A stretch of DNA of 33,967 bases, from positions 1 to 33,967 of the forward strand of contig JAXGJB010000033.1 of NCBI GenBank assembly GCA_040770465.1, written 5' to 3'. A program made the position numbers and the translations under genes. Shown here in pieces: positions 1 to 15,229 of this stretch. The stretch's first letter is position 1; every line of letters begins with the position of its first letter. The stretch comes from Methanothrix sp. (GTDB taxonomy: Archaea; Halobacteriota; Methanosarcinia; Methanotrichales; Methanotrichaceae). The notes under the pieces were generated by a model. That model had not been told where the DNA came from. It saw nothing but the letters and a program-made list of their open reading frames with translations, and ran no database searches.

Positions 1-704
<704 letters not shown>

Positions 705-794
705 GGAGGTAAGGGGAGAAGGCTCGAAAGATGAAGGCAGATGCATTGGGTCTGGATCTGTGATATTCTTATCTTGGTTTATGCAAAAAGTGCA

Positions 795-830
795 TTTGGG
801 TGGAGAGGTGGAACACCCCGCCACCCAGAT
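795..830. terminator. Imperfect GC-rich hairpin downstream of the 863..1798 gene
   Basis: TGGGTGG-AGA-GGTG-GAA-CACC-CCG-CCACCCA inverted repeat about 35 nt past the stop codon. Confidence 0.35.
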
Positions 831-862
831 TGAAGACGCCACATCAGGTTTCCAATGGCTAC

Positions 863-1798
863 CTATAATGTGCTGTTTGCCGCAAGAATCTCGATGGTCG
901 TATTATCAGCTTGTTCGATTGGTGCGATTAGCTCATAAAGTGCGGCCATTGGCAACGACCTAGTTTCATCAATATTTACTGTTTTTATATCGTCGCTGTA
1001 TAGCTTCATCTTGTCATCCGAGGGCGATGTCACTGCATAAATCCACATAGTGTGCTCGTTACCGATGCCCCATGAATGCAGCCTATGAATTCCAGGAGCG
1101 ATTTTCTGAGTAACGTCAACCGGATTTACCCTTACGTAAAGATCGCCCTTACTGCATTCTTCGGGAACACAAGAAATTCCACCAGGAGCAAAGGAATTAT
1201 AATTCATACATGTTACGGCATCACAGCCGGAAACTTCGTCCCCATCTATCGAGTAATGCTGTCCGTATGATAGGATCTCATCTTCCCAGTAGTCAGTCTC
1301 TGCATAATCTGAACCACTTACAGATAATTTTGCTTCCTCTATGGTACAGTTGGGAACGAATAGGTTCAGATCGAATTCGTCATCGAAATCGTAGGCTATC
1401 ACGCGATACATGTAGGGATCGTCTACATAGTATACACGAGGTGAGTCAGAGAAACTGCCTCCAGCAGCCTCTACTAAGTCTTGGGCTCTATACAAGTCGC
1501 GAAGTATTACTTCTCTCATATCAAGACTGAATGCAGAAGAACTCGCTATGACTACTGTACCATCATCTTTAAAAATAGCCCAGCTGCCAGTGTCTTTGTA
1601 CACCAAAACAATGCCTTTTTCATCATGATCAACTATGTCGTAAATCATATGGAATTCATCAGCTTTCGAGTAAAGAGTTTCAAAATTGACGGATATTCCT
1701 GTTGTCGACACCGCTGACCTGAATTCAGGATACTCTACCGCACTTGCTCCGAGTGTCATACATAATACGCACACGACTATGCCGAAGATTTTCATCAT
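863..1798 (-). CDS. Secreted acidic hypothetical protein
   Basis: 311-aa ORF with a signal peptide (MMKIFGIVVCVLCMTLGASA), GGAGG RBS, Asp/Glu-rich composition, a Cys cluster (CDAVTC...CVPEEC) and NxT sequons. More AT-rich than the core genes. Confidence 0.8.
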   Translation of the reverse strand: MMKIFGIVVCVLCMTLGASAVEYPEFRSAVSTTGISVNFETLYSKADEFHMIYDIVDHDEKGIVLVYKDTGSWAIFKDDGTVVIASSSAFSLDMREVILRDLYRAQDLVEAAGGSFSDSPRVYYVDDPYMYRVIAYDFDDEFDLNLFVPNCTIEEAKLSVSGSDYAETDYWEDEILSYGQHYSIDGDEVSGCDAVTCMNYNSFAPGGISCVPEECSKGDLYVRVNPVDVTQKIAPGIHRLHSWGIGNEHTMWIYAVTSPSDDKMKLYSDDIKTVNIDETRSLPMAALYELIAPIEQADNTTIEILAANSTL

Positions 1799-1913
1799 TC
1801 TCTCCTCCCACGTTGCTCAAAGCATCTATATCACATAGCATATTATCTTAGCAATAAATGTTTGGATCAAAGATCGTCGTCGAGGATGAGAAGGATAAAA
1901 GGGCAGATCCTTC

Positions 1914-3191
1914 TCAGATCCATTTCACTTCGCCATAGGACCACTTTATGTGCTCTTCGGGGTTTGAGCCGCTAAAGTCAACCATGAGGCTTGCCAAACC
2001 AATCGTAGATGATGAAACCATAGCCTCCAATTTCAACTGGTAGAGGTGGTCTTTCATCAATTCGGCTTCGATCTCACCGGTCGGCCATTCATCTATGTAC
2101 TCGTCCAGTAAGGATTCATCCTCGAAAGCCGTTGAGTAGATGAGCACCTTGTCGACGACGAAATCCTCAGTCTTGTCCTCCAAGGTCATGTATACTCTGA
2201 GATCAGCTGAACTCTTGAAGAGGTCCATCGGTAATAAACCACCTAGATCAGACACACCGGCGGTTGCGATCCCCCCTTTGACATGACACTTTAGAACAGC
2301 CCTGCAAAGATGAGTCTCCCTGTCATAAACAAACTCGTCCCAGACCGTTCCGGAGGCCCAGTGGTTGCTAAAACCCGTATCATCACAGAACAGCATTATA
2401 CGCTCGCCCTGGATACTAGAATTGCTGCGCCCGTCTCCAGATCCACCATGATTGCTGACCCCCGAGGTTACGGTGGTGCTTCGCCGGTGGAAGGGCTCCG
2501 GCACGACCGCGGGCTCGATAGATGTTTCAGATTCGTTGATCACGTATTCATGATCACTGCTGGCTGAAGCGGATCCTTTTGAGATTTCTCTCTGGGGAGG
2601 TGCCACTATCACGTTATCGAGCCCCTCAAGATCCTTTCCGTCGCTGTACTCTCCCCGGATCAAGATCCTGTCCACGTGCTCCATCGTCTCCAGGAACTCG
2701 CTCTCGTTGACCCCGAAGAAATCCGCCACCAGCGGTATCTCGTAATGGGTCCAAGCTCCCATTTCAGGCTCAACGGGCCAGGGGGCAGTGGATCCAGGCC
2801 AGGCCACGAAGGAGCCGTTGGGACCGTATATCTTCAGGATGTCAGAGAAGTTCAGGTTGATGCCGTCATCGTCATCGATGAGCCTGATGTCGAAGCTCAA
2901 TAAATCTCCAACGTGAGCAGTCCAGTTCCCAGACCAGGATTCGGGGGAGACGTAGTACCAAGTCTCGTTCTCGTCCGCATCCTCGCCGAGGAGAAAGCCG
3001 CCGGGATTTCCACCCCGCTCCATCCAGGATAAGTTGGCTCCGCCCTCAGAGCGCCACAACTCGTCCGATTGATCAAAGGTGAATCCTTCGACCACATCGG
3101 CTACGATCCCGTTCTCTTCGTCCTGGGCCATCGATGGCAATAGCGACAAAAGAGCCGCAAGGGCCAATATAAGAATCCACCTCTGTCTCAT
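1914..3191 (-). CDS. Secreted protein with laminin domain-IV (laminin B)-like beta-sandwich and an unknown C-terminal domain
   Basis: Signal peptide MRQRWILILALAALLSLLPSMA preceded by GGAGG (start 3191 preferred over 3212). Motif string GGNPGGFL...WYYVSPESWSGNW...LSFDIR...ILIRGEY...EGLDNV is typical of prokaryotic laminin-IV-like domains. A Ser/Thr/Gly-rich linker follows. Confidence 0.75.
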   Translation of the reverse strand: MRQRWILILALAALLSLLPSMAQDEENGIVADVVEGFTFDQSDELWRSEGGANLSWMERGGNPGGFLLGEDADENETWYYVSPESWSGNWTAHVGDLLSFDIRLIDDDDGINLNFSDILKIYGPNGSFVAWPGSTAPWPVEPEMGAWTHYEIPLVADFFGVNESEFLETMEHVDRILIRGEYSDGKDLEGLDNVIVAPPQREISKGSASASSDHEYVINESETSIEPAVVPEPFHRRSTTVTSGVSNHGGSGDGRSNSSIQGERIMLFCDDTGFSNHWASGTVWDEFVYDRETHLCRAVLKCHVKGGIATAGVSDLGGLLPMDLFKSSADLRVYMTLEDKTEDFVVDKVLIYSTAFEDESLLDEYIDEWPTGEIEAELMKDHLYQLKLEAMVSSSTIGLASLMVDFSGSNPEEHIKWSYGEVKWI

Positions 3192-3284
3192 AATAATCTC
3201 CTCCATTTGCATGAACGAATGTGACGATTGGCAAAAAATGTTTCTATGTCGGCCTTTTTCAGAGAAGAGTCATATCAACAGCCG

Positions 3285-3668
3285 TCACCATTCCCCCAGC
3301 TTCGCCTGCCTTTCGCCGCCCGCCTCGCCCACCTCCGGCACCGAGACCCCCAGCTCCACCTCGAACCACTCCGCCACCAGCCGCCGATGGCAGAAGGCGC
3401 CCGGCCTCTCCCAGCAGAGGAGGACGGCGTCCTCGCCGAGGTCGGCATAGACCGTGTTGGGGTCGAGCTTCGAGAGGACTTCTTCCCGGTAGCGCCGAAT
3501 GTACTCGTCCTCGTCGATGGCGCCGCTCTTCGCCTCCTGCACCAGGCGCCAGGAGGGCGCCAGCGGCTCGTACGCGCGGCCGGTCCAGCCGCGGGGCTGG
3601 GTCCGGGAGATGGCGACGGCCCTGGGGTGCGAGCCGGAACGGGAGAAGTTGGAGGTCTGCATATCCAT
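3285..3668 (-). CDS. DUF488 family protein
   Basis: Motifs TSNF...AISR..P...LAPSW.L...Y...Y..EVL..LD...VLLCWE.PGAFCHRRLVAEW match the DUF488 family (LLC.E...CHR). Confidence 0.85.
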   Translation of the reverse strand: MDMQTSNFSRSGSHPRAVAISRTQPRGWTGRAYEPLAPSWRLVQEAKSGAIDEDEYIRRYREEVLSKLDPNTVYADLGEDAVLLCWERPGAFCHRRLVAEWFEVELGVSVPEVGEAGGERQAKLGEW

Positions 3669-4083
3669 CGACTGAGTCCATTTATCACTATTTATCTCAC
3701 CTTAGCGGCTTCGGCAGTTTAATGCTACCCCTTTAATTTCAGCGATTACGTCACCCGAATCATGCGAGGGCATATGCGAGGCCATACATCTACCACCACT
3801 CTGACCGAACAAAACCCTCGGCTGACTGATATGCACCAACAACACGTTGATCCGGCGAGATAATTATGCTCAACTTGGGCTAAGAGCCCGACGATCCGAT
3901 TATACTTATTCGATGAACTTATATCTCTTGAAGACCTTGTATCCCATGTTATTGAGAGATTCACCAACACATGTCGTGCATAAAATCAATTTGTTTTTGC
4001 AATGTGTAAGAGGCGTGGAGAACCTGTTAGCTGGATGCTTTAGAGAGAAAATTTAGATTTTAGAGCTAAATCAATCTCATGAG

Positions 4084-4467
4084 GTGGAATTCTCGATGGA
4101 GATGAGCAAAAAAACTGTGTTAGAAATTGTTCGCAATACCCTAAGTCCAGAGCAGATAGAGCGATCCTTCATCTACTGGGACAGACGTTCCCTCAAGAAG
4201 GGTGAACAGATCAAGGCTGGTCCACAGACCATCACAATCCCGTTTGACGGGACGATGATCTTTGTAGATCTTGCGCCCCGCTTCAATTGGGCACATCCTT
4301 GTCTCTATTTGCTTGTAAATGAGAGAGATCTGAGAACAGAAGTTGCAAAGGCGTCCTTTCCGCCTTACTCAAATAAGTTCCCTGAAACATTCATTATTAT
4401 TCTAAGATACGGGGAAGAGCCGCCGCACGAGCGCTACTTTCAAATATTTGATGAAAGAAAGATGTAG
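4084..4467 (+). CDS. Hypothetical protein; stand-alone homolog of the N-terminal domain of the downstream protease
   Basis: 127-aa ORF; the true start may be ATG 4096, after GAGGTGG. Shares IP...DLAPxxNWAHPCxY...ASFPP with residues ~1-100 of the next ORF, with a 5-nt gap between them. Confidence 0.85.
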   Translation: MEFSMEMSKKTVLEIVRNTLSPEQIERSFIYWDRRSLKKGEQIKAGPQTITIPFDGTMIFVDLAPRFNWAHPCLYLLVNERDLRTEVAKASFPPYSNKFPETFIIILRYGEEPPHERYFQIFDERKM

Positions 4468-4472
4468 ATACT

Positions 4473-6797
4473 ATGAAATTATCGCAGGCTCTAAAAGCTC
4501 AACTAAAGAGTGAAATTTTCAGTGATATCAGGGATATCAACGTAGAAAGGCGAGTAAATCTCTCCCTCTACGATGAGGTACTAAATGCCGGAAAAAAGAT
4601 TCGAGTGTTCGATAAGGAAGTCGTCATCCCTCGAAATACTGCGTTGGTAATGGCTGACCTGGCACCACAATGCAACTGGGCGCACCCTTGCCAGTACCGC
4701 TTGTACGATGCCGATACCGGGAAGCTCTATCAAAAGATGAACGCCTCGTTTCCACCCCCTCAATTTAGACGACACCCCGAACGCGTAGAGGTTTTTCACG
4801 CACCGGTCCAGCCCATAGATACCCAGAAGATGCGTGCCGTTAAGAGAGCAGCCGTGGCGCCTCGACTAAACGCGCTCGCCAACCACCCCGGAGAACGTTA
4901 TGCTATCCTGTTTTCAGGCGATTCCAACAATAGGCACGTCAACGACATCGAGTTTCTCTACCGCACGCTGATTGATGCATATAGCTTCAACGCGGCGAAC
5001 ATACATGTTCTGAATCATGATGGAACCATAAACTACGACGGAGGCCCAAAGCCGGTGGGCAACTGGCCTGGAGACAACACAGCATACCGAATGGCGGTCA
5101 ACGGGCAGGGAACTAGAGCAGCTTTCCAAGCAACCCTAGCCACCCTGGCCACTCAAATACGTCCCGAGGATCTGCTCTTTATCCACACAAATAACCACGG
5201 CGGCGGTCCTTGCGATGGAGTAAACGACTACTGTCTTTGCGCATATGATGCCGCCCTCGATTGGGTCGCATATTACGTAAACGATTTTGTTGCTGATCTT
5301 GGCGTCCTGCCCCGTTTCGATGTGCTGATGGTGATGATGGAACAGTGCCGATCCGGAGGCTTCATCAATCCAATCATCAACAACACCCCAGCTCGATGGA
5401 CTCACGTTGCAACTGCTGTCACCGCCGATGACTATTCACTGGGCGGAGCCAATTTCGACCCCTTCGCCGAAGACTGGATTGCCGGGATAGCTGGCCAGTA
5501 CCCGAACGGAGATGGGCTTACTCAGGTTGTGGATACGAATGGGGACGGACGAATATCTGCCGCGGAGGCTTTTTCCTACGCCGATGCCGTGCATCAGTAT
5601 GACGGCTATATAGCACAATATTGTCAAGGTACGCCTCTTAGATATGGTGATACTCCTACATTCTCAGAGACTCCAACCGGTGCAGGCGCGTGGATCTTCT
5701 TGGGCCTTCCTGCACACGATCTCTTCCTGCGCGATAACCTCGAAGACCACGGTCTCGAGCCCCTCATCGGTGGCGGCATCTGTTGCAGCCCAGACATTAT
5801 CATATATCGTCAACAGTTGCTCGATCCGGATGCAACTCTTCTGACGGCAGCCGCTCAGGATAATGACATGCTGGGTGAGCCAGTCGAGTATGGGCAGGAT
5901 AACTTCGTCTATTTGCGCGTGCAGAACCGCGGATCGCAGCCTACTGCTGGCAAGGTCAAAGTCTACTGGGCACCGCCTTCTGTGCTGCCAACGCCGTCAT
6001 CATGGCATTACCTTGGTGAGGCAGACATCCCAGCAGTCCCCCCTGGAGAGATGATCGTGGTCGGTCCCGTAAAGTGGGAAAAGGCGGATATTCCGGCAGA
6101 AGGACATTACTGTTTTGTGGGACTCGTTCAGAGTGGAGATGACCCTGCCCCTGACAAAGACGCGATCAACACATGGGATGAATTTTACAGGCTAATCCGC
6201 GAGAGCAATAACGTCACTTGGAAGAACTTTGACGTCTATGATACCTTCGCCAATTCTATGAATAGCCTGGAATTCCACATCCAGGGCTGGCCCAGGACAA
6301 GGCTCTCGGCCGATCTGCTGATAGATCTCTCGGAGATGCCGCGGGAAATGGAGGTCAGGCTTCGGATACTCAAACGTCTAAGCGCAACAGCTACGCTGGA
6401 AAATATGCAGCTGGAAGAGGAGTCACAACGTTACCAGAAATTCCGGGTAGATGGTGGGGCGCGTGGGTTCCTGCATGGCATGGATCTTAAGCCATCAGAT
6501 GACACCCAGGCGTGGCTTGAAGTTGTGGTCCCGGAGGGTATACCCGACGGGGCGTATCGCTTGGGTGTTGCACAGATAGTTGATGGCCTCGAAATGGGAA
6601 GGGTCACGCGCGTTCTGGCTGTAGGAGACTACAAATTCTTGGCAAACAGCAATTCAAAAGAAGTGCACGTTCCCGAGTGTGTTTGGGCACATAGAGTTGC
6701 ACCCAAAAACAAAGTTGCCTACAGTGATCTGGACCGAGCTCTGAAACACGGTTACAATGGCTGTCACTATTGTCTTCCGGAGTTCAGCACCGATTAG
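4473..6797 (+). CDS. Clan CD (C13 legumain/caspase-like) cysteine peptidase with N-terminal prodomain-like region, Ig/CARDB-like region and C-terminal Ada-like Zn-binding module
   Basis: RYAILFSG strand, LFIHTNNHGG (His242), VMMEQCRSGGF (Cys292), DTNGDGRISAAE Ca-loop, DLFLRDN..SPDI..NFVYLRVQNRG..VKVYWA..GHYCF..NNVTWKN Ig-like block, terminal NSKEVHVPEC...GYNGCHYCLP. No signal peptide. Confidence 0.85.
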   Translation: MKLSQALKAQLKSEIFSDIRDINVERRVNLSLYDEVLNAGKKIRVFDKEVVIPRNTALVMADLAPQCNWAHPCQYRLYDADTGKLYQKMNASFPPPQFRRHPERVEVFHAPVQPIDTQKMRAVKRAAVAPRLNALANHPGERYAILFSGDSNNRHVNDIEFLYRTLIDAYSFNAANIHVLNHDGTINYDGGPKPVGNWPGDNTAYRMAVNGQGTRAAFQATLATLATQIRPEDLLFIHTNNHGGGPCDGVNDYCLCAYDAALDWVAYYVNDFVADLGVLPRFDVLMVMMEQCRSGGFINPIINNTPARWTHVATAVTADDYSLGGANFDPFAEDWIAGIAGQYPNGDGLTQVVDTNGDGRISAAEAFSYADAVHQYDGYIAQYCQGTPLRYGDTPTFSETPTGAGAWIFLGLPAHDLFLRDNLEDHGLEPLIGGGICCSPDIIIYRQQLLDPDATLLTAAAQDNDMLGEPVEYGQDNFVYLRVQNRGSQPTAGKVKVYWAPPSVLPTPSSWHYLGEADIPAVPPGEMIVVGPVKWEKADIPAEGHYCFVGLVQSGDDPAPDKDAINTWDEFYRLIRESNNVTWKNFDVYDTFANSMNSLEFHIQGWPRTRLSADLLIDLSEMPREMEVRLRILKRLSATATLENMQLEEESQRYQKFRVDGGARGFLHGMDLKPSDDTQAWLEVVVPEGIPDGAYRLGVAQIVDGLEMGRVTRVLAVGDYKFLANSNSKEVHVPECVWAHRVAPKNKVAYSDLDRALKHGYNGCHYCLPEFSTD

Positions 6798-6824
6798 AGA
6801 CGAAAATGGTGTTCGCCTGCTAAA

Positions 6825-6885
6825 AATCAACTGGTGCATCCAGCCGACCGCGCTTTCGCGCGGCGGCTGAATCACATCCTTGGGA
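6825..6885 (+). mobile_element. Degenerate integron attC-like recombination site
   Basis: AATCAAC (R'') - 5 nt - CATCCAGC (L'') - CGACCGCGC TTTC GCGCGGCG - GCTGAAT (L') - 6 nt - CTTGGGA (R' with G>C). Two unpaired bases (C6840, A6847) sit at the positions expected for attC extrahelical bases; the site begins 28 nt after a stop codon. Confidence 0.55.
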
Positions 6886-7014
6886 GCAAACAGGATCGAA
6901 TTTCTTGAGTTGATCATCAATACTCCGGGCTTTGAGCCTATAAGCTGAGGCTAGACGTCAAATTGGTATTTTATCCCTGAATCTCCACGAAGAATGTAGA
7001 AAGTTGGCGGCGGC

Positions 7015-15136: not shown

Positions 15137-15229
15137 TGCGCCGACCGGGATTCGAACCCGGGTTTTGGGCTTGCTCCGCGACACCTGCCGCTTGGAAGGC
15201 CCAAGTCATAACCACTGGACCATCGGCGC
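15137..15229 (-). tRNA. tRNA-Gly(TCC) with a 21-nt intron at position 37/38 (intron 15172..15192)
   Basis: Acceptor stem GCGCCGA/TCGGCGC plus discriminator A, D-arm GTCCAGTGGTTATGAC, anticodon stem TGGGC/GCCCA with CT-TCC-A, T-arm CCGGG-TTCGAAT-CCCGG. The intron forms a bulge-helix-bulge; CCA is not encoded. Confidence 0.95.

Follow-up and report, generated by a model that had tools for sequence, protein, structure and literature searches.

A free-standing paralogue of a legumain-type protease's N-terminal domain as its likely dedicated partner in a two-gene cassette of Methanothrix

Introduction

Much is known about the legumains of animals, plants and parasites. We analyzed a pair of adjoining genes in a 33,967-nucleotide (nt) contig of the archaeon Methanothrix sp. 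(GenBank assembly GCA_040770465.1, contig JAXGJB010000033.1; this whole stretch is called the window, and coordinates refer to it unless another locus is named), in which a large gene encodes a legumain-type (C13) protease and a small gene encodes a stand-alone copy of that protease's own N-terminal domain, here called the NWAHPC domain. A sequence-only reading of the window had taken the pair for a self-regulated cytoplasmic protease switch, possibly toxin-antitoxin-like or antiviral, with the small protein as inhibitor, folding chaperone, adaptor or substrate. The analysis reported here suggests that the small protein is likely to be a dedicated physical partner or regulator of the protease, because the adjacency of the genes is conserved, the split between the two copies is old, the compartments of the two proteins match, and the cassette forms a unit. 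That it acts specifically as an inhibitor, for which analogy with described systems speaks, we consider possible at somewhat less than even odds.

Of the systems described, SpeB and Spi offer a close parallel. Spi is a propeptide-analogue inhibitor encoded beside speB (Kagawa et al. 2005, cited in PMC2873492), and the passage of PMC2873492 that deals with this pair reports that the two are cotranscribed and that the inhibitor has been proposed to protect the producer cell. As in our locus, the small protein is homologous to the N-terminal region of the protease, and its gene adjoins the protease gene. However, SpeB is a secreted, papain-like C10 enzyme of clan CA, without sequence relation to the clan CD, legumain-like protease studied here; moreover, most of the present pairs appear to be cytoplasmic, their paralogy is ancient and extends over many phyla, and inhibition would be proposed for them by analogy. 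Dedicated small inhibitor genes beside cysteine protease genes are also described for staphopain and staphostatin and for Bacteroides Bfp and Bfi in the corresponding passages of PMC2873492, according to which the localization of the inhibitor fits cell protection and lipoprotein partners occur, as at one of our loci (L042). Staphostatins are lipocalin-like and unrelated to the domains of their proteases, whereas the partner described here is paralogous to a domain of its protease.

Within clan CD, the proteins consisting only of a caspase recruitment domain (CARD) that are encoded beside caspase-1 (COP, INCA, and ICEBERG) act as decoys, as set out in the relevant portion of PMC3775265. The likeness to our locus lies in a clan CD protease with an N-terminal noncatalytic domain and in duplicated neighboring genes that encode this domain alone. 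CARD is a helical death-fold, whereas the NWAHPC domain combines a helix with a beta-sheet; the CARD-only genes are recent and primate specific, whereas the NWAHPC split is old, and we see no sign of filament or adaptor machinery at the present loci. Eukaryotic legumain (MEROPS C13) shares with the large protein the catalytic fold, the His/Cys dyad and, in the alignment, the R-H...E pocket residues. Its regulation depends on an attached domain and on inhibitor proteins that insert an Asn residue (portions of PMC4357240 and PMC4506564), the enzyme being held by a C-terminal activation peptide and a helical LSAM domain (same portion of PMC4357240). Unlike it, the protein studied here has no signal peptide and no LSAM domain, its C-terminal half is all-beta, and the candidate regulator is N-terminal and duplicated in trans.

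Results

Gene pair and domain layout

The open reading frames (ORFs) of the pair occupy positions 4084-4467 (+, small) and 4473-6797 (+, large, 774 amino acids [aa]), with a 5-nt gap between them. ATG 4096 (123 aa) is a likelier start of the small gene than GTG 4084 (127 aa), since GAGGTG lies at 4081-4086, the collection record (P0001) is of 123 aa, and homologues start there. The resemblance of the small ORF to the beginning of the large protein, originally seen by eye, was recovered by BLASTP (37% identity over 59 aa, residues 37-94 versus 37-95, E = 8e-12 in a single comparison), and the common motif lies at 4267-4302 in the small gene and at 4656-4691 in the large gene, exactly where it had been placed. 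Neither N terminus showed a hydrophobic signal-like stretch on inspection, in agreement with the earlier view that both proteins lack a signal peptide. The two genes stand alone within 3.33 kb, in a cassette of about 3.3 kb (3673-7014) with the following parts.

3673..4095, + strand: upstream noncoding part of the cassette, presumed promoter region, with Shine-Dalgarno-like GAGGTG at 4081-4086
4096..4467, + strand: small gene, stand-alone NWAHPC-domain protein of 123 aa (41 stand-alone homologues, invariant motif, confident model)
4267..4302, + strand: motif DLAPRFNWAHPC of the small protein (D62-C73; from BLASTP and homologue alignment)
4473..6797, + strand: large gene, 774-aa signal-less legumain-type (C13) protease (from profile and fold)
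4473..4832, + strand: cis NWAHPC N-domain, residues ~1-120, with motif DLAPQCNWAHPC at 4656-4691 (profile match E = 8.7e-34; helix 5-21, strands 29-109)
4833..4895, + strand: flexible linker, residues ~121-141, with Asn133 (model confidence about 55, below 50 at residues 128-134)
4896..5717, + strand: C13 catalytic domain, residues ~142-415, with R154-H155, H242-G243 and E290-Q291-C292 (PF01650, alignment with 5obt, Foldseek)
5718..6794, + strand: C-terminal all-beta module of ~360 aa, residues 416-774 (from the model; common to other signal-less peptidase heads)
about 6630-6794, + strand: Ada/'sunset'-like H-C-C-C zinc motif (H732, C736, C764, C767), which ends the C-terminal module
6798..7014, + strand: downstream noncoding part of the cassette (99.5% identical to the near-identical locus L021)

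Conservation of the pair across genomes

Scoring of 67 candidates gave 41 stand-alone homologues of the small protein (111-172 aa, 45-99% identity), with an invariant motif, D-x2-P-x2-N-W-A-H-P-C-x-Y (invariant D, P, N, W, H, C, and Y). The scans of genome and metagenome contigs were both seeded with the NWAHPC pattern and therefore sample the closer subfamily. On genome contigs, a stand-alone homologue was found in 10 of 11 loci, and a large homologue, full-length or truncated by the contig, followed directly downstream on the same strand at all nine loci with DNA downstream (hosts: Acidobacteriaceae, Methanoregula, Bacteroidales, Geobacter, Methanothrix, an actinomycete, Prolixibacteraceae, and Desulfocapsaceae). 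The eleventh locus (L011) has no stand-alone gene and carries three tandem copies fused to C13. On metagenome contigs, the small gene was present in 19 of 20 loci and the large gene was next to it in 19 of 19; these include a 66-aa stub near a contig end (L037), a near-identical copy of the window locus (L021), two loci with identical products (L024 and L026) and two that are probably one lineage, given their equal product lengths and match statistics (L005 and L038). Adjacency and co-orientation of the small and large genes thus held in 28 of 28 loci, with a median gap of 21.5 nt and an overlap in 7 of 30 pairs. No third gene common to the loci was found.

A profile of the domain (A2, built from 15 stand-alone and 11 fused copies) was then used to survey four phyla. 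Matches were obtained in 6 of 301 genomes of Bacteroidota, 4 of 301 of the window's own phylum, 2 of 301 of Desulfobacterota, and 3 of 301 of Acidobacteriota, i.e., in 15 of 1204 genomes or, as each sample contains one seed genome with a known pair, in 11 of 1200 without seeds. Eleven of the 15 positive genomes had an adjacent stand-alone and fused pair, in either gene order: a 457-aa protease comes first, with a 4-nt overlap with the small gene, at L041 and L045, and the small gene comes first at L043 and L044. One locus (L048, G594:C1:551500-558500; 587-3700, -) is fully split into a 112-aa stand-alone protein with NFEHPV, a 434-aa C13 protein without cis domain, and a radical-SAM/SPASM protein. 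At L042, a C13 protease with a signal peptide is followed by a 131-aa lipoprotein copy of the domain, and at L051 both protease and partner have signal peptides; judged by these predicted signals, an exported protease has an exported partner. The pairing across genomes that the sequence-only reading had proposed to look for was therefore present, with stand-alone copies adjoining a clan CD (C13) protease, and such homologues as are secreted also keep a partner with its own signal peptide; the defense-island context that it had likewise named was not found.

Radical-SAM genes near L006, L022, and L048 were considered as a third component and rejected, as they are not orthologous (best pairwise E = 4e-7 over about 100 aa). 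Other peptidase genes seen near the pair encode an M4 thermolysin-like protein with PepSY, a C39/C70 papain-like protein, and a trypsin-like fragment (L026 7925-10366; L030 3568-4191; L022 9998-10366).

Age of the split between stand-alone and cis copies

In a tree of 18 cognate pairs (36 sequences, 106 columns) that covers three subfamilies, the stand-alone copies fell without exception on one side and the cis copies on the other (Shimodaira-Hasegawa-like support of 0.857, ultrafast bootstrap of 92), and a separate duplication in each subfamily was rejected by the approximately unbiased (AU) test (delta log likelihood of 32.8, p-AU = 0.0085). Identity between cognate copies (0.29) was about equal to that between noncognate copies (0.28). 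Distances of the partners were correlated (r = 0.86 over all pairs and 0.58 within the subfamily), with P values that mean little because the pairs are not independent. On this tree, the stand-alone and fused copies form two old clades of co-diversifying paralogues; the earlier remark that the duplication is not recent agrees with both the tree and the AU test.

The NWAHPC domain

In the 2.54-Mb genome, profile A2 matched at two sites only, the small gene and the N terminus of the large protein (E = 5.9e-50 and 8.7e-34). Among 1.84 billion representatives, it matched 1224 clusters at E <= 0.001 and 339 at E <= 1e-10. The best 150 matches comprised 96 proteins shorter than 200 aa and 54 longer ones, of which 45 were scanned with Pfam (the nine left out being known homologues of the large protein). 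Peptidase_C13 stood directly after the domain in 28 of these, 6 had only a sorting tail of the type IX secretion system (T9SS), and 11 had no match; another catalytic family next to the domain was seen in none of the 45. Where it is fused to anything catalytic in these scanned long proteins, the NWAHPC domain is always on C13.

The AlphaFold model of the small protein is confident (predicted local distance difference test [pLDDT] of 91.4, predicted template modeling score [pTM] of 0.85), and in the models both copies show one order of elements, six or seven strands after an N-terminal helix. The small protein had no match in Pfam, NCBIfam, or PADLOC, a sequence search of the PDB with the domain profile returned rows at chance level (best E = 0.11), and the ESM Atlas gave only the protein's own family and the N termini of C13 proteins. 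Structural search with VIA reached a best Z of 4.7 in the wide search (5boi_A, root mean square deviation of 3.4, 67 residues). A second look gave a best Z of 3.8, and the tool itself places such values in its background. Among the top VIA rows were YpeB-C, YpmB, CD1622, and the propeptide chains of vibriolysin and fungalysin, which are entries for PepSY or propeptide domains, and a designed cystatin fold (4r80_A, Z = 4.2). The likeness to these PepSY/cystatin-like propeptide folds (M4, M36) consists of a helix on an antiparallel sheet; with Z values of 3.6-4.7, within the stated background, and without sequence relation, it is a lead rather than a classification.

Exported proteins of Bacteroidota type carry two or three tandem NWAHPC domains (L011 5812-8322; P0173, P0186, P0200, P0206, P0221), and some of them have a T9SS sorting tail only, without a protease domain. 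Three copies were counted in L011 and two each in P0166, P0189, P0194, and P0197. An origin of these tandem domains by fusion of the small and cis lineages was rejected, as they form a clade of their own and reflect lineage-specific duplications. P0168 was likewise rejected as a Rosetta-stone fusion of N-domain, C13, and small-like domain, its residues ~275-400 resembling an out-of-frame read-through of GC-rich DNA.

The large protein as a C13-type protease

The large protein scored 22.7 bits against Peptidase_C13 (PF01650) in the protein scan (E = 8e-5; cutoff, 22.8) and 24.1 bits, above the cutoff, in the six-frame genome search, and a precomputed PF01650 match is present on many of its homologues. 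A profile of 29 full-length homologues (A3) matched plant legumains in the PDB, best the Arabidopsis legumain 5obt (E = 9.2e-7), in whose alignment N-R154-H155 falls on Y-R-H, H242-G243 on H-G-G, and E290-x-C292 on E-A-C (EACES); in the 29 homologues, conservation of R154-H155, H242-G243, and E290-x-C292 is complete or reaches at least 90%. The dyad of His242 (NNHGG) and Cys292 (EQCRSGG), which had been called intact from the letters, thus aligns with the catalytic His and Cys of legumain. The AlphaFold model (pLDDT 87.0, pTM 0.72) consists of the N-domain (helix 5-21, strands to 109), a low-confidence linker, the catalytic domain from ~142, and beta-sandwich domains. In a Foldseek search with it, legumains filled the top 13 rows (4n6o_A, E = 9.7e-9, template modeling [TM] score by target of 0.63; 8ae5_A, TM score of 0.69). 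By profile and predicted fold, the large protein is a C13-type protease.

By alignment, the residues of a legumain-type S1 pocket are present, namely, Arg-His after strand 1 and Glu two positions before the Cys, the His and the Glu having pocket roles in legumain as well. The catalytic order of His then Cys, as in C13, is also found. In legumain, Arg44 is a P1-pocket residue and Asn or Asp is taken at P1 (relevant portion of PMC4357240). From its sequence features, the large protein is probably Asn/Asp specific and cytoplasmic. The helical LSAM prodomain of canonical eukaryotic legumain is absent from the model, in which residues 416-774 are almost wholly beta-strand; since this C-terminal half is all-beta and is common to non-C13 peptidases, the C13-type catalytic domain sits in a noncanonical architecture. 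Asn133 of the linker was considered as a general autoprocessing site and rejected, as it is conserved in the window-like subfamily only, where it is near invariant. This residue and the flexible linker are the sole hints that the N-terminal region might be a true propeptide, inhibitory and cut off upon activation. A search of the available literature for a paper on a bacterial, prokaryotic, or archaeal legumain found none.

Mobility, distribution, and expression of the cassette

No full-length homologue was found in 60 relatives, including 15 congeners, which gave only matches to the C-terminal part and one distant C13-like match (G019). In one congener (G001), eno is followed after about 4.4 kb by gyrA, with a DUF488 gene about 90 bp from gyrA, where the window has 3.33 kb, and the cassette is absent. 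Compared with L021, the parts of the cassette are 99.5% (3673-4095), 100% (small gene), 99.74% (large gene), and 99.5% (6798-7014) identical, and the flanking genes are 93.6% (eno), 89.7% (DUF488), and 90.8-93.4% (gyrA) identical. The contrast between 99.5-100% within the cassette and 89.7-93.6% in its flanks points to recent exchange between diverged lineages, and the cassette is, on these identities, a self-contained, horizontally exchanged, putative two-gene operon. Its flanks contain no convincing repeats, direct or inverted, of the sort expected for a transposon. Window and L021 differ at no position of the small gene and at six of the large gene, too few for a ratio of nonsynonymous to synonymous substitution rates.

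Plasmid pMETHO01 of Methanomethylovorans hollandica DSM 15978 encodes a homologue with 57.5% identity (255996-258410), whose annotation reads "C13 family peptidase" and which has ParA and IS5 genes in its vicinity. A small ORF upstream of this C13 gene (L046 8576-8950; NC_019972.1) ends early, without the PPHERYF..FD tail, and is absent from the plasmid gene table. Near-identical DNA was present in contigs of runs from 12 studies (digesters, sludge, and sediment). Two metatranscriptome runs, likely of the source study, gave short, low-depth contigs (4096-4334, 5083-5370, 6133-6495, and 6537-6840), none of them bridging the genes. A scan for sigma-70 promoters and terminators was uninformative, the host being an archaeon.

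The C-terminal module

Residues 416-774 recur at about 47-61% identity behind signal-less heads of other kinds, i.e., Peptidase_M64, Peptidase_M14, Gln_deamidase_2, and C13 without the N-domain (the module and its other heads were noted in proteins P0303-P0340). It also occurs in S8 subtilases (33-42% identity), two of which are encoded directly upstream of the pair (L022, 2522-4942; L033, 1028-4465), and an M36-like head in a congener (L016) bears it at about 26%. In the last ~55 residues, H732, C736, C764, and C767 are invariant. Copies of this zinc motif in relatives match Ada_Zn_binding (E = 7e-9) and, under its cutoff, the NCBIfam "sunset" domain; the window's own copy matches weakly (E = 0.074). 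A search of the available literature for "sunset domain" gave no paper, and the ESM Atlas gave only weak CARDB or NPCBM-associated leads for the C-terminal half (score <=0.85). An Ada-Zn/"sunset"-like H-C-C-C motif terminates many proteins of the genus, including an astacin-type (LegP-like) metalloprotease (L019) and the M36-like L016, as well as L017 and L018; about 20 relatives match the ~55-aa piece alone.

Other features of the window

A DUF488 protein encoded next to the cassette (3285-3668, -) is recognized by the PADLOC candidate model PDC-M45C (E = 5.9e-9); its gene is considered to lie outside the pair because congener G001 has DUF488 without the cassette. A second variable spot extends from eno to DUF488 (711-3278 in the window, compared with 331-4177 in L021 and with L049); the window has two signal-peptide proteins there (863-1798; 1914-3212, the latter with a Laminin_B-like domain), and L021 has a 1232-aa WD40-repeat protein. 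A 93-nt tRNA gene (15137-15229, -; Rfam, 55.2 bits) showed no clear anticodon by ARAGORN and probably contains an intron.

Discussion

Pairing across phyla, ancient co-diversification, and matched compartments suggest that a clan CD (C13) protease with an intact active site has in the small protein a trans partner that is conserved and dedicated to it, in partial support of the sequence-only reading. The overall reading that we favor for the cassette, by analogy with the systems described above and with a probability of roughly 0.5, is that of a propeptide-like or decoy regulator. The small protein would bind its own protease at the surface that the cis domain occupies, or else form a pair with the cis domain itself; once bound, it would keep the enzyme latent or control its assembly. 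As a speculation, the invariant Asn of the rigid NWAHPC loop (Asn68 of the small protein, or Asn64 when numbered from ATG 4096) might serve as a substrate-like P1 residue. A precedent is Asn39 of cystatin E, which is bound substrate-like in the S1 site of legumain according to the portion of PMC4506564 that treats this complex.

Several observations weigh against this reading. That the small protein binds and inhibits the protease is what we infer, and the same invariant loop occurs in both copies, so that an inhibitor is not distinguishable by sequence from a co-subunit or chaperone. The protease already bears a cis copy, and the need for a trans copy is not evident. No known inhibitor or propeptide matches the NWAHPC fold significantly; Foldseek with the small model gave a best E of 0.3 in the PDB and 0.25 in BFVD, with nothing at E <= 0.001. 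The loop Cys is not universal (exceptions, L048 and P0168), and the conserved tail of the small protein is specific to the window-like subfamily, as is Asn133 of the linker. Three of the 15 positive genomes showed only the fused form, namely, G464 (membrane anchored), G913 (signal peptide), and G1217 (a single match at a contig end), and C13 proteins of about 620-630 aa (e.g., P0315 and P0321) exist with the same C-terminal module and without the N-domain. Finally, the evidence for expression is weak, consisting of the low-depth metatranscriptome contigs from the likely source study.

The main rival, which we consider rather unlikely, casts the small protein as an obligate structural subunit or a folding chaperone (activator) of an enzyme that needs one cis and one trans NWAHPC domain for folding or for its active assembly. 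It accounts well for the exported Bacteroidota forms with two or three tandem copies per chain, for the split form at L048, in which the sole N-domain is supplied in trans, for the retention of the functional loop in both paralogues, and for a translational coupling that suggests equimolar production. However, the tandem copies are lineage-specific duplications in a separate clade and not fusions of stand-alone and cis copies, and fused forms without a second copy exist (L047 and L050).

An unlikely alternative is a toxin-antitoxin-like or abortive-infection module, in which the protease would be toxic, the small protein would be the antidote, and infection or stress would release the protease. 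In keeping with such a role, the distribution is patchy (the 11 of 1200 sampled genomes without seeds, and a full-length homologue in 0 of 15 congeners), the cassette was apparently exchanged recently between lineages, a plasmid copy has ParA and IS5 genes for neighbors, the large gene follows the small one in tight coupling, and one C-terminal module is found on many different hydrolase heads. One module on varied heads is a pattern of conflict systems. Against this stand the lack of families for either protein in PADLOC-DB 2.0 at E <= 1, the 81 neighboring ORFs of 16 loci, which were heterogeneous and mostly housekeeping with no recurrent defense genes, the lack of a match for either protein in 50,697 phage records, and the absence of a recognizable DNA-binding domain from the small protein. 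As regards type II toxin-antitoxin systems, the small protein has no Pfam or NCBIfam domain, and the large one is a 774-aa protease of no known toxin family. Exported pairs cannot be cytoplasmic suicide switches, and the partner relation is thus not specific to cytoplasmic suicide. The idea of a cytoplasmic switch fits the signal-less pair of the window and fails for the exported pairs elsewhere; the antiviral or toxin-antitoxin role that had been suggested found nothing in its support and is speculative because no defense-island context was found.

Distinctly unlikely, in our estimate, is a mobile cytoplasmic switch in which a decoy paralogue would hold a legumain-type executioner latent until a trigger such as viral infection displaced or consumed the decoy, the protease then hitting cellular or viral targets and the C-terminal module (on at least six heads in this count: C13, S8, M14, M64, protein-glutaminase-like, and M36-like) serving as a common sensing or targeting platform. 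If true, it would be a prokaryotic counterpart of the CARD-only control of caspase-1 and would give prokaryotic legumains a first function.

It is very unlikely that the small protein is a substrate, i.e., a precursor cleaved or ligated by the legumain-type enzyme in the manner of asparaginyl endopeptidases and ligases. Legumains cleave and ligate after Asn (relevant passage of PMC4506564), and an invariant Asn lies in an exposed, conserved loop of the small protein, which in the window-like subfamily also has a conserved C-terminal ...F-D tail. Yet the enzyme's own cis domain keeps the same loop, the small protein forms a compact domain with a confident model (pLDDT 91) and is no leader-plus-core peptide, and the radical-SAM genes near three loci are not mutually orthologous. 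Lastly, that the small ORF has no function, being a duplicate in decay or an ORF arisen by chance, for which the tail-truncated M. hollandica copy missing from the plasmid gene table might be cited, is hardly credible in view of 41 full-length homologues at 45-99% identity across phyla, the conserved position and orientation, the invariant residues, and the confident fold.

Whatever the role of the small protein, the analysis defines an unnamed domain family that is exclusive to C13 proteases and usually present as one cis and one trans copy, and the C-terminal module behind many peptidase heads provides a second lead. The cassette is small (3.3 kb) and well bounded and has a relative in a cultured methanogen, M. 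hollandica DSM 15978, which makes it directly testable. Should the trans copy be an inhibitor or decoy, as in the regulator reading that we favor, it would interest protein engineers as a genetically simple, portable means of controlling an Asn-specific protease or ligase scaffold, and the protease would be one regulated by a paralogue of its own domain, in an arrangement predating the split of several subfamilies. Pairing of this kind across many bacterial and archaeal phyla is probably an undescribed way of controlling a protease.

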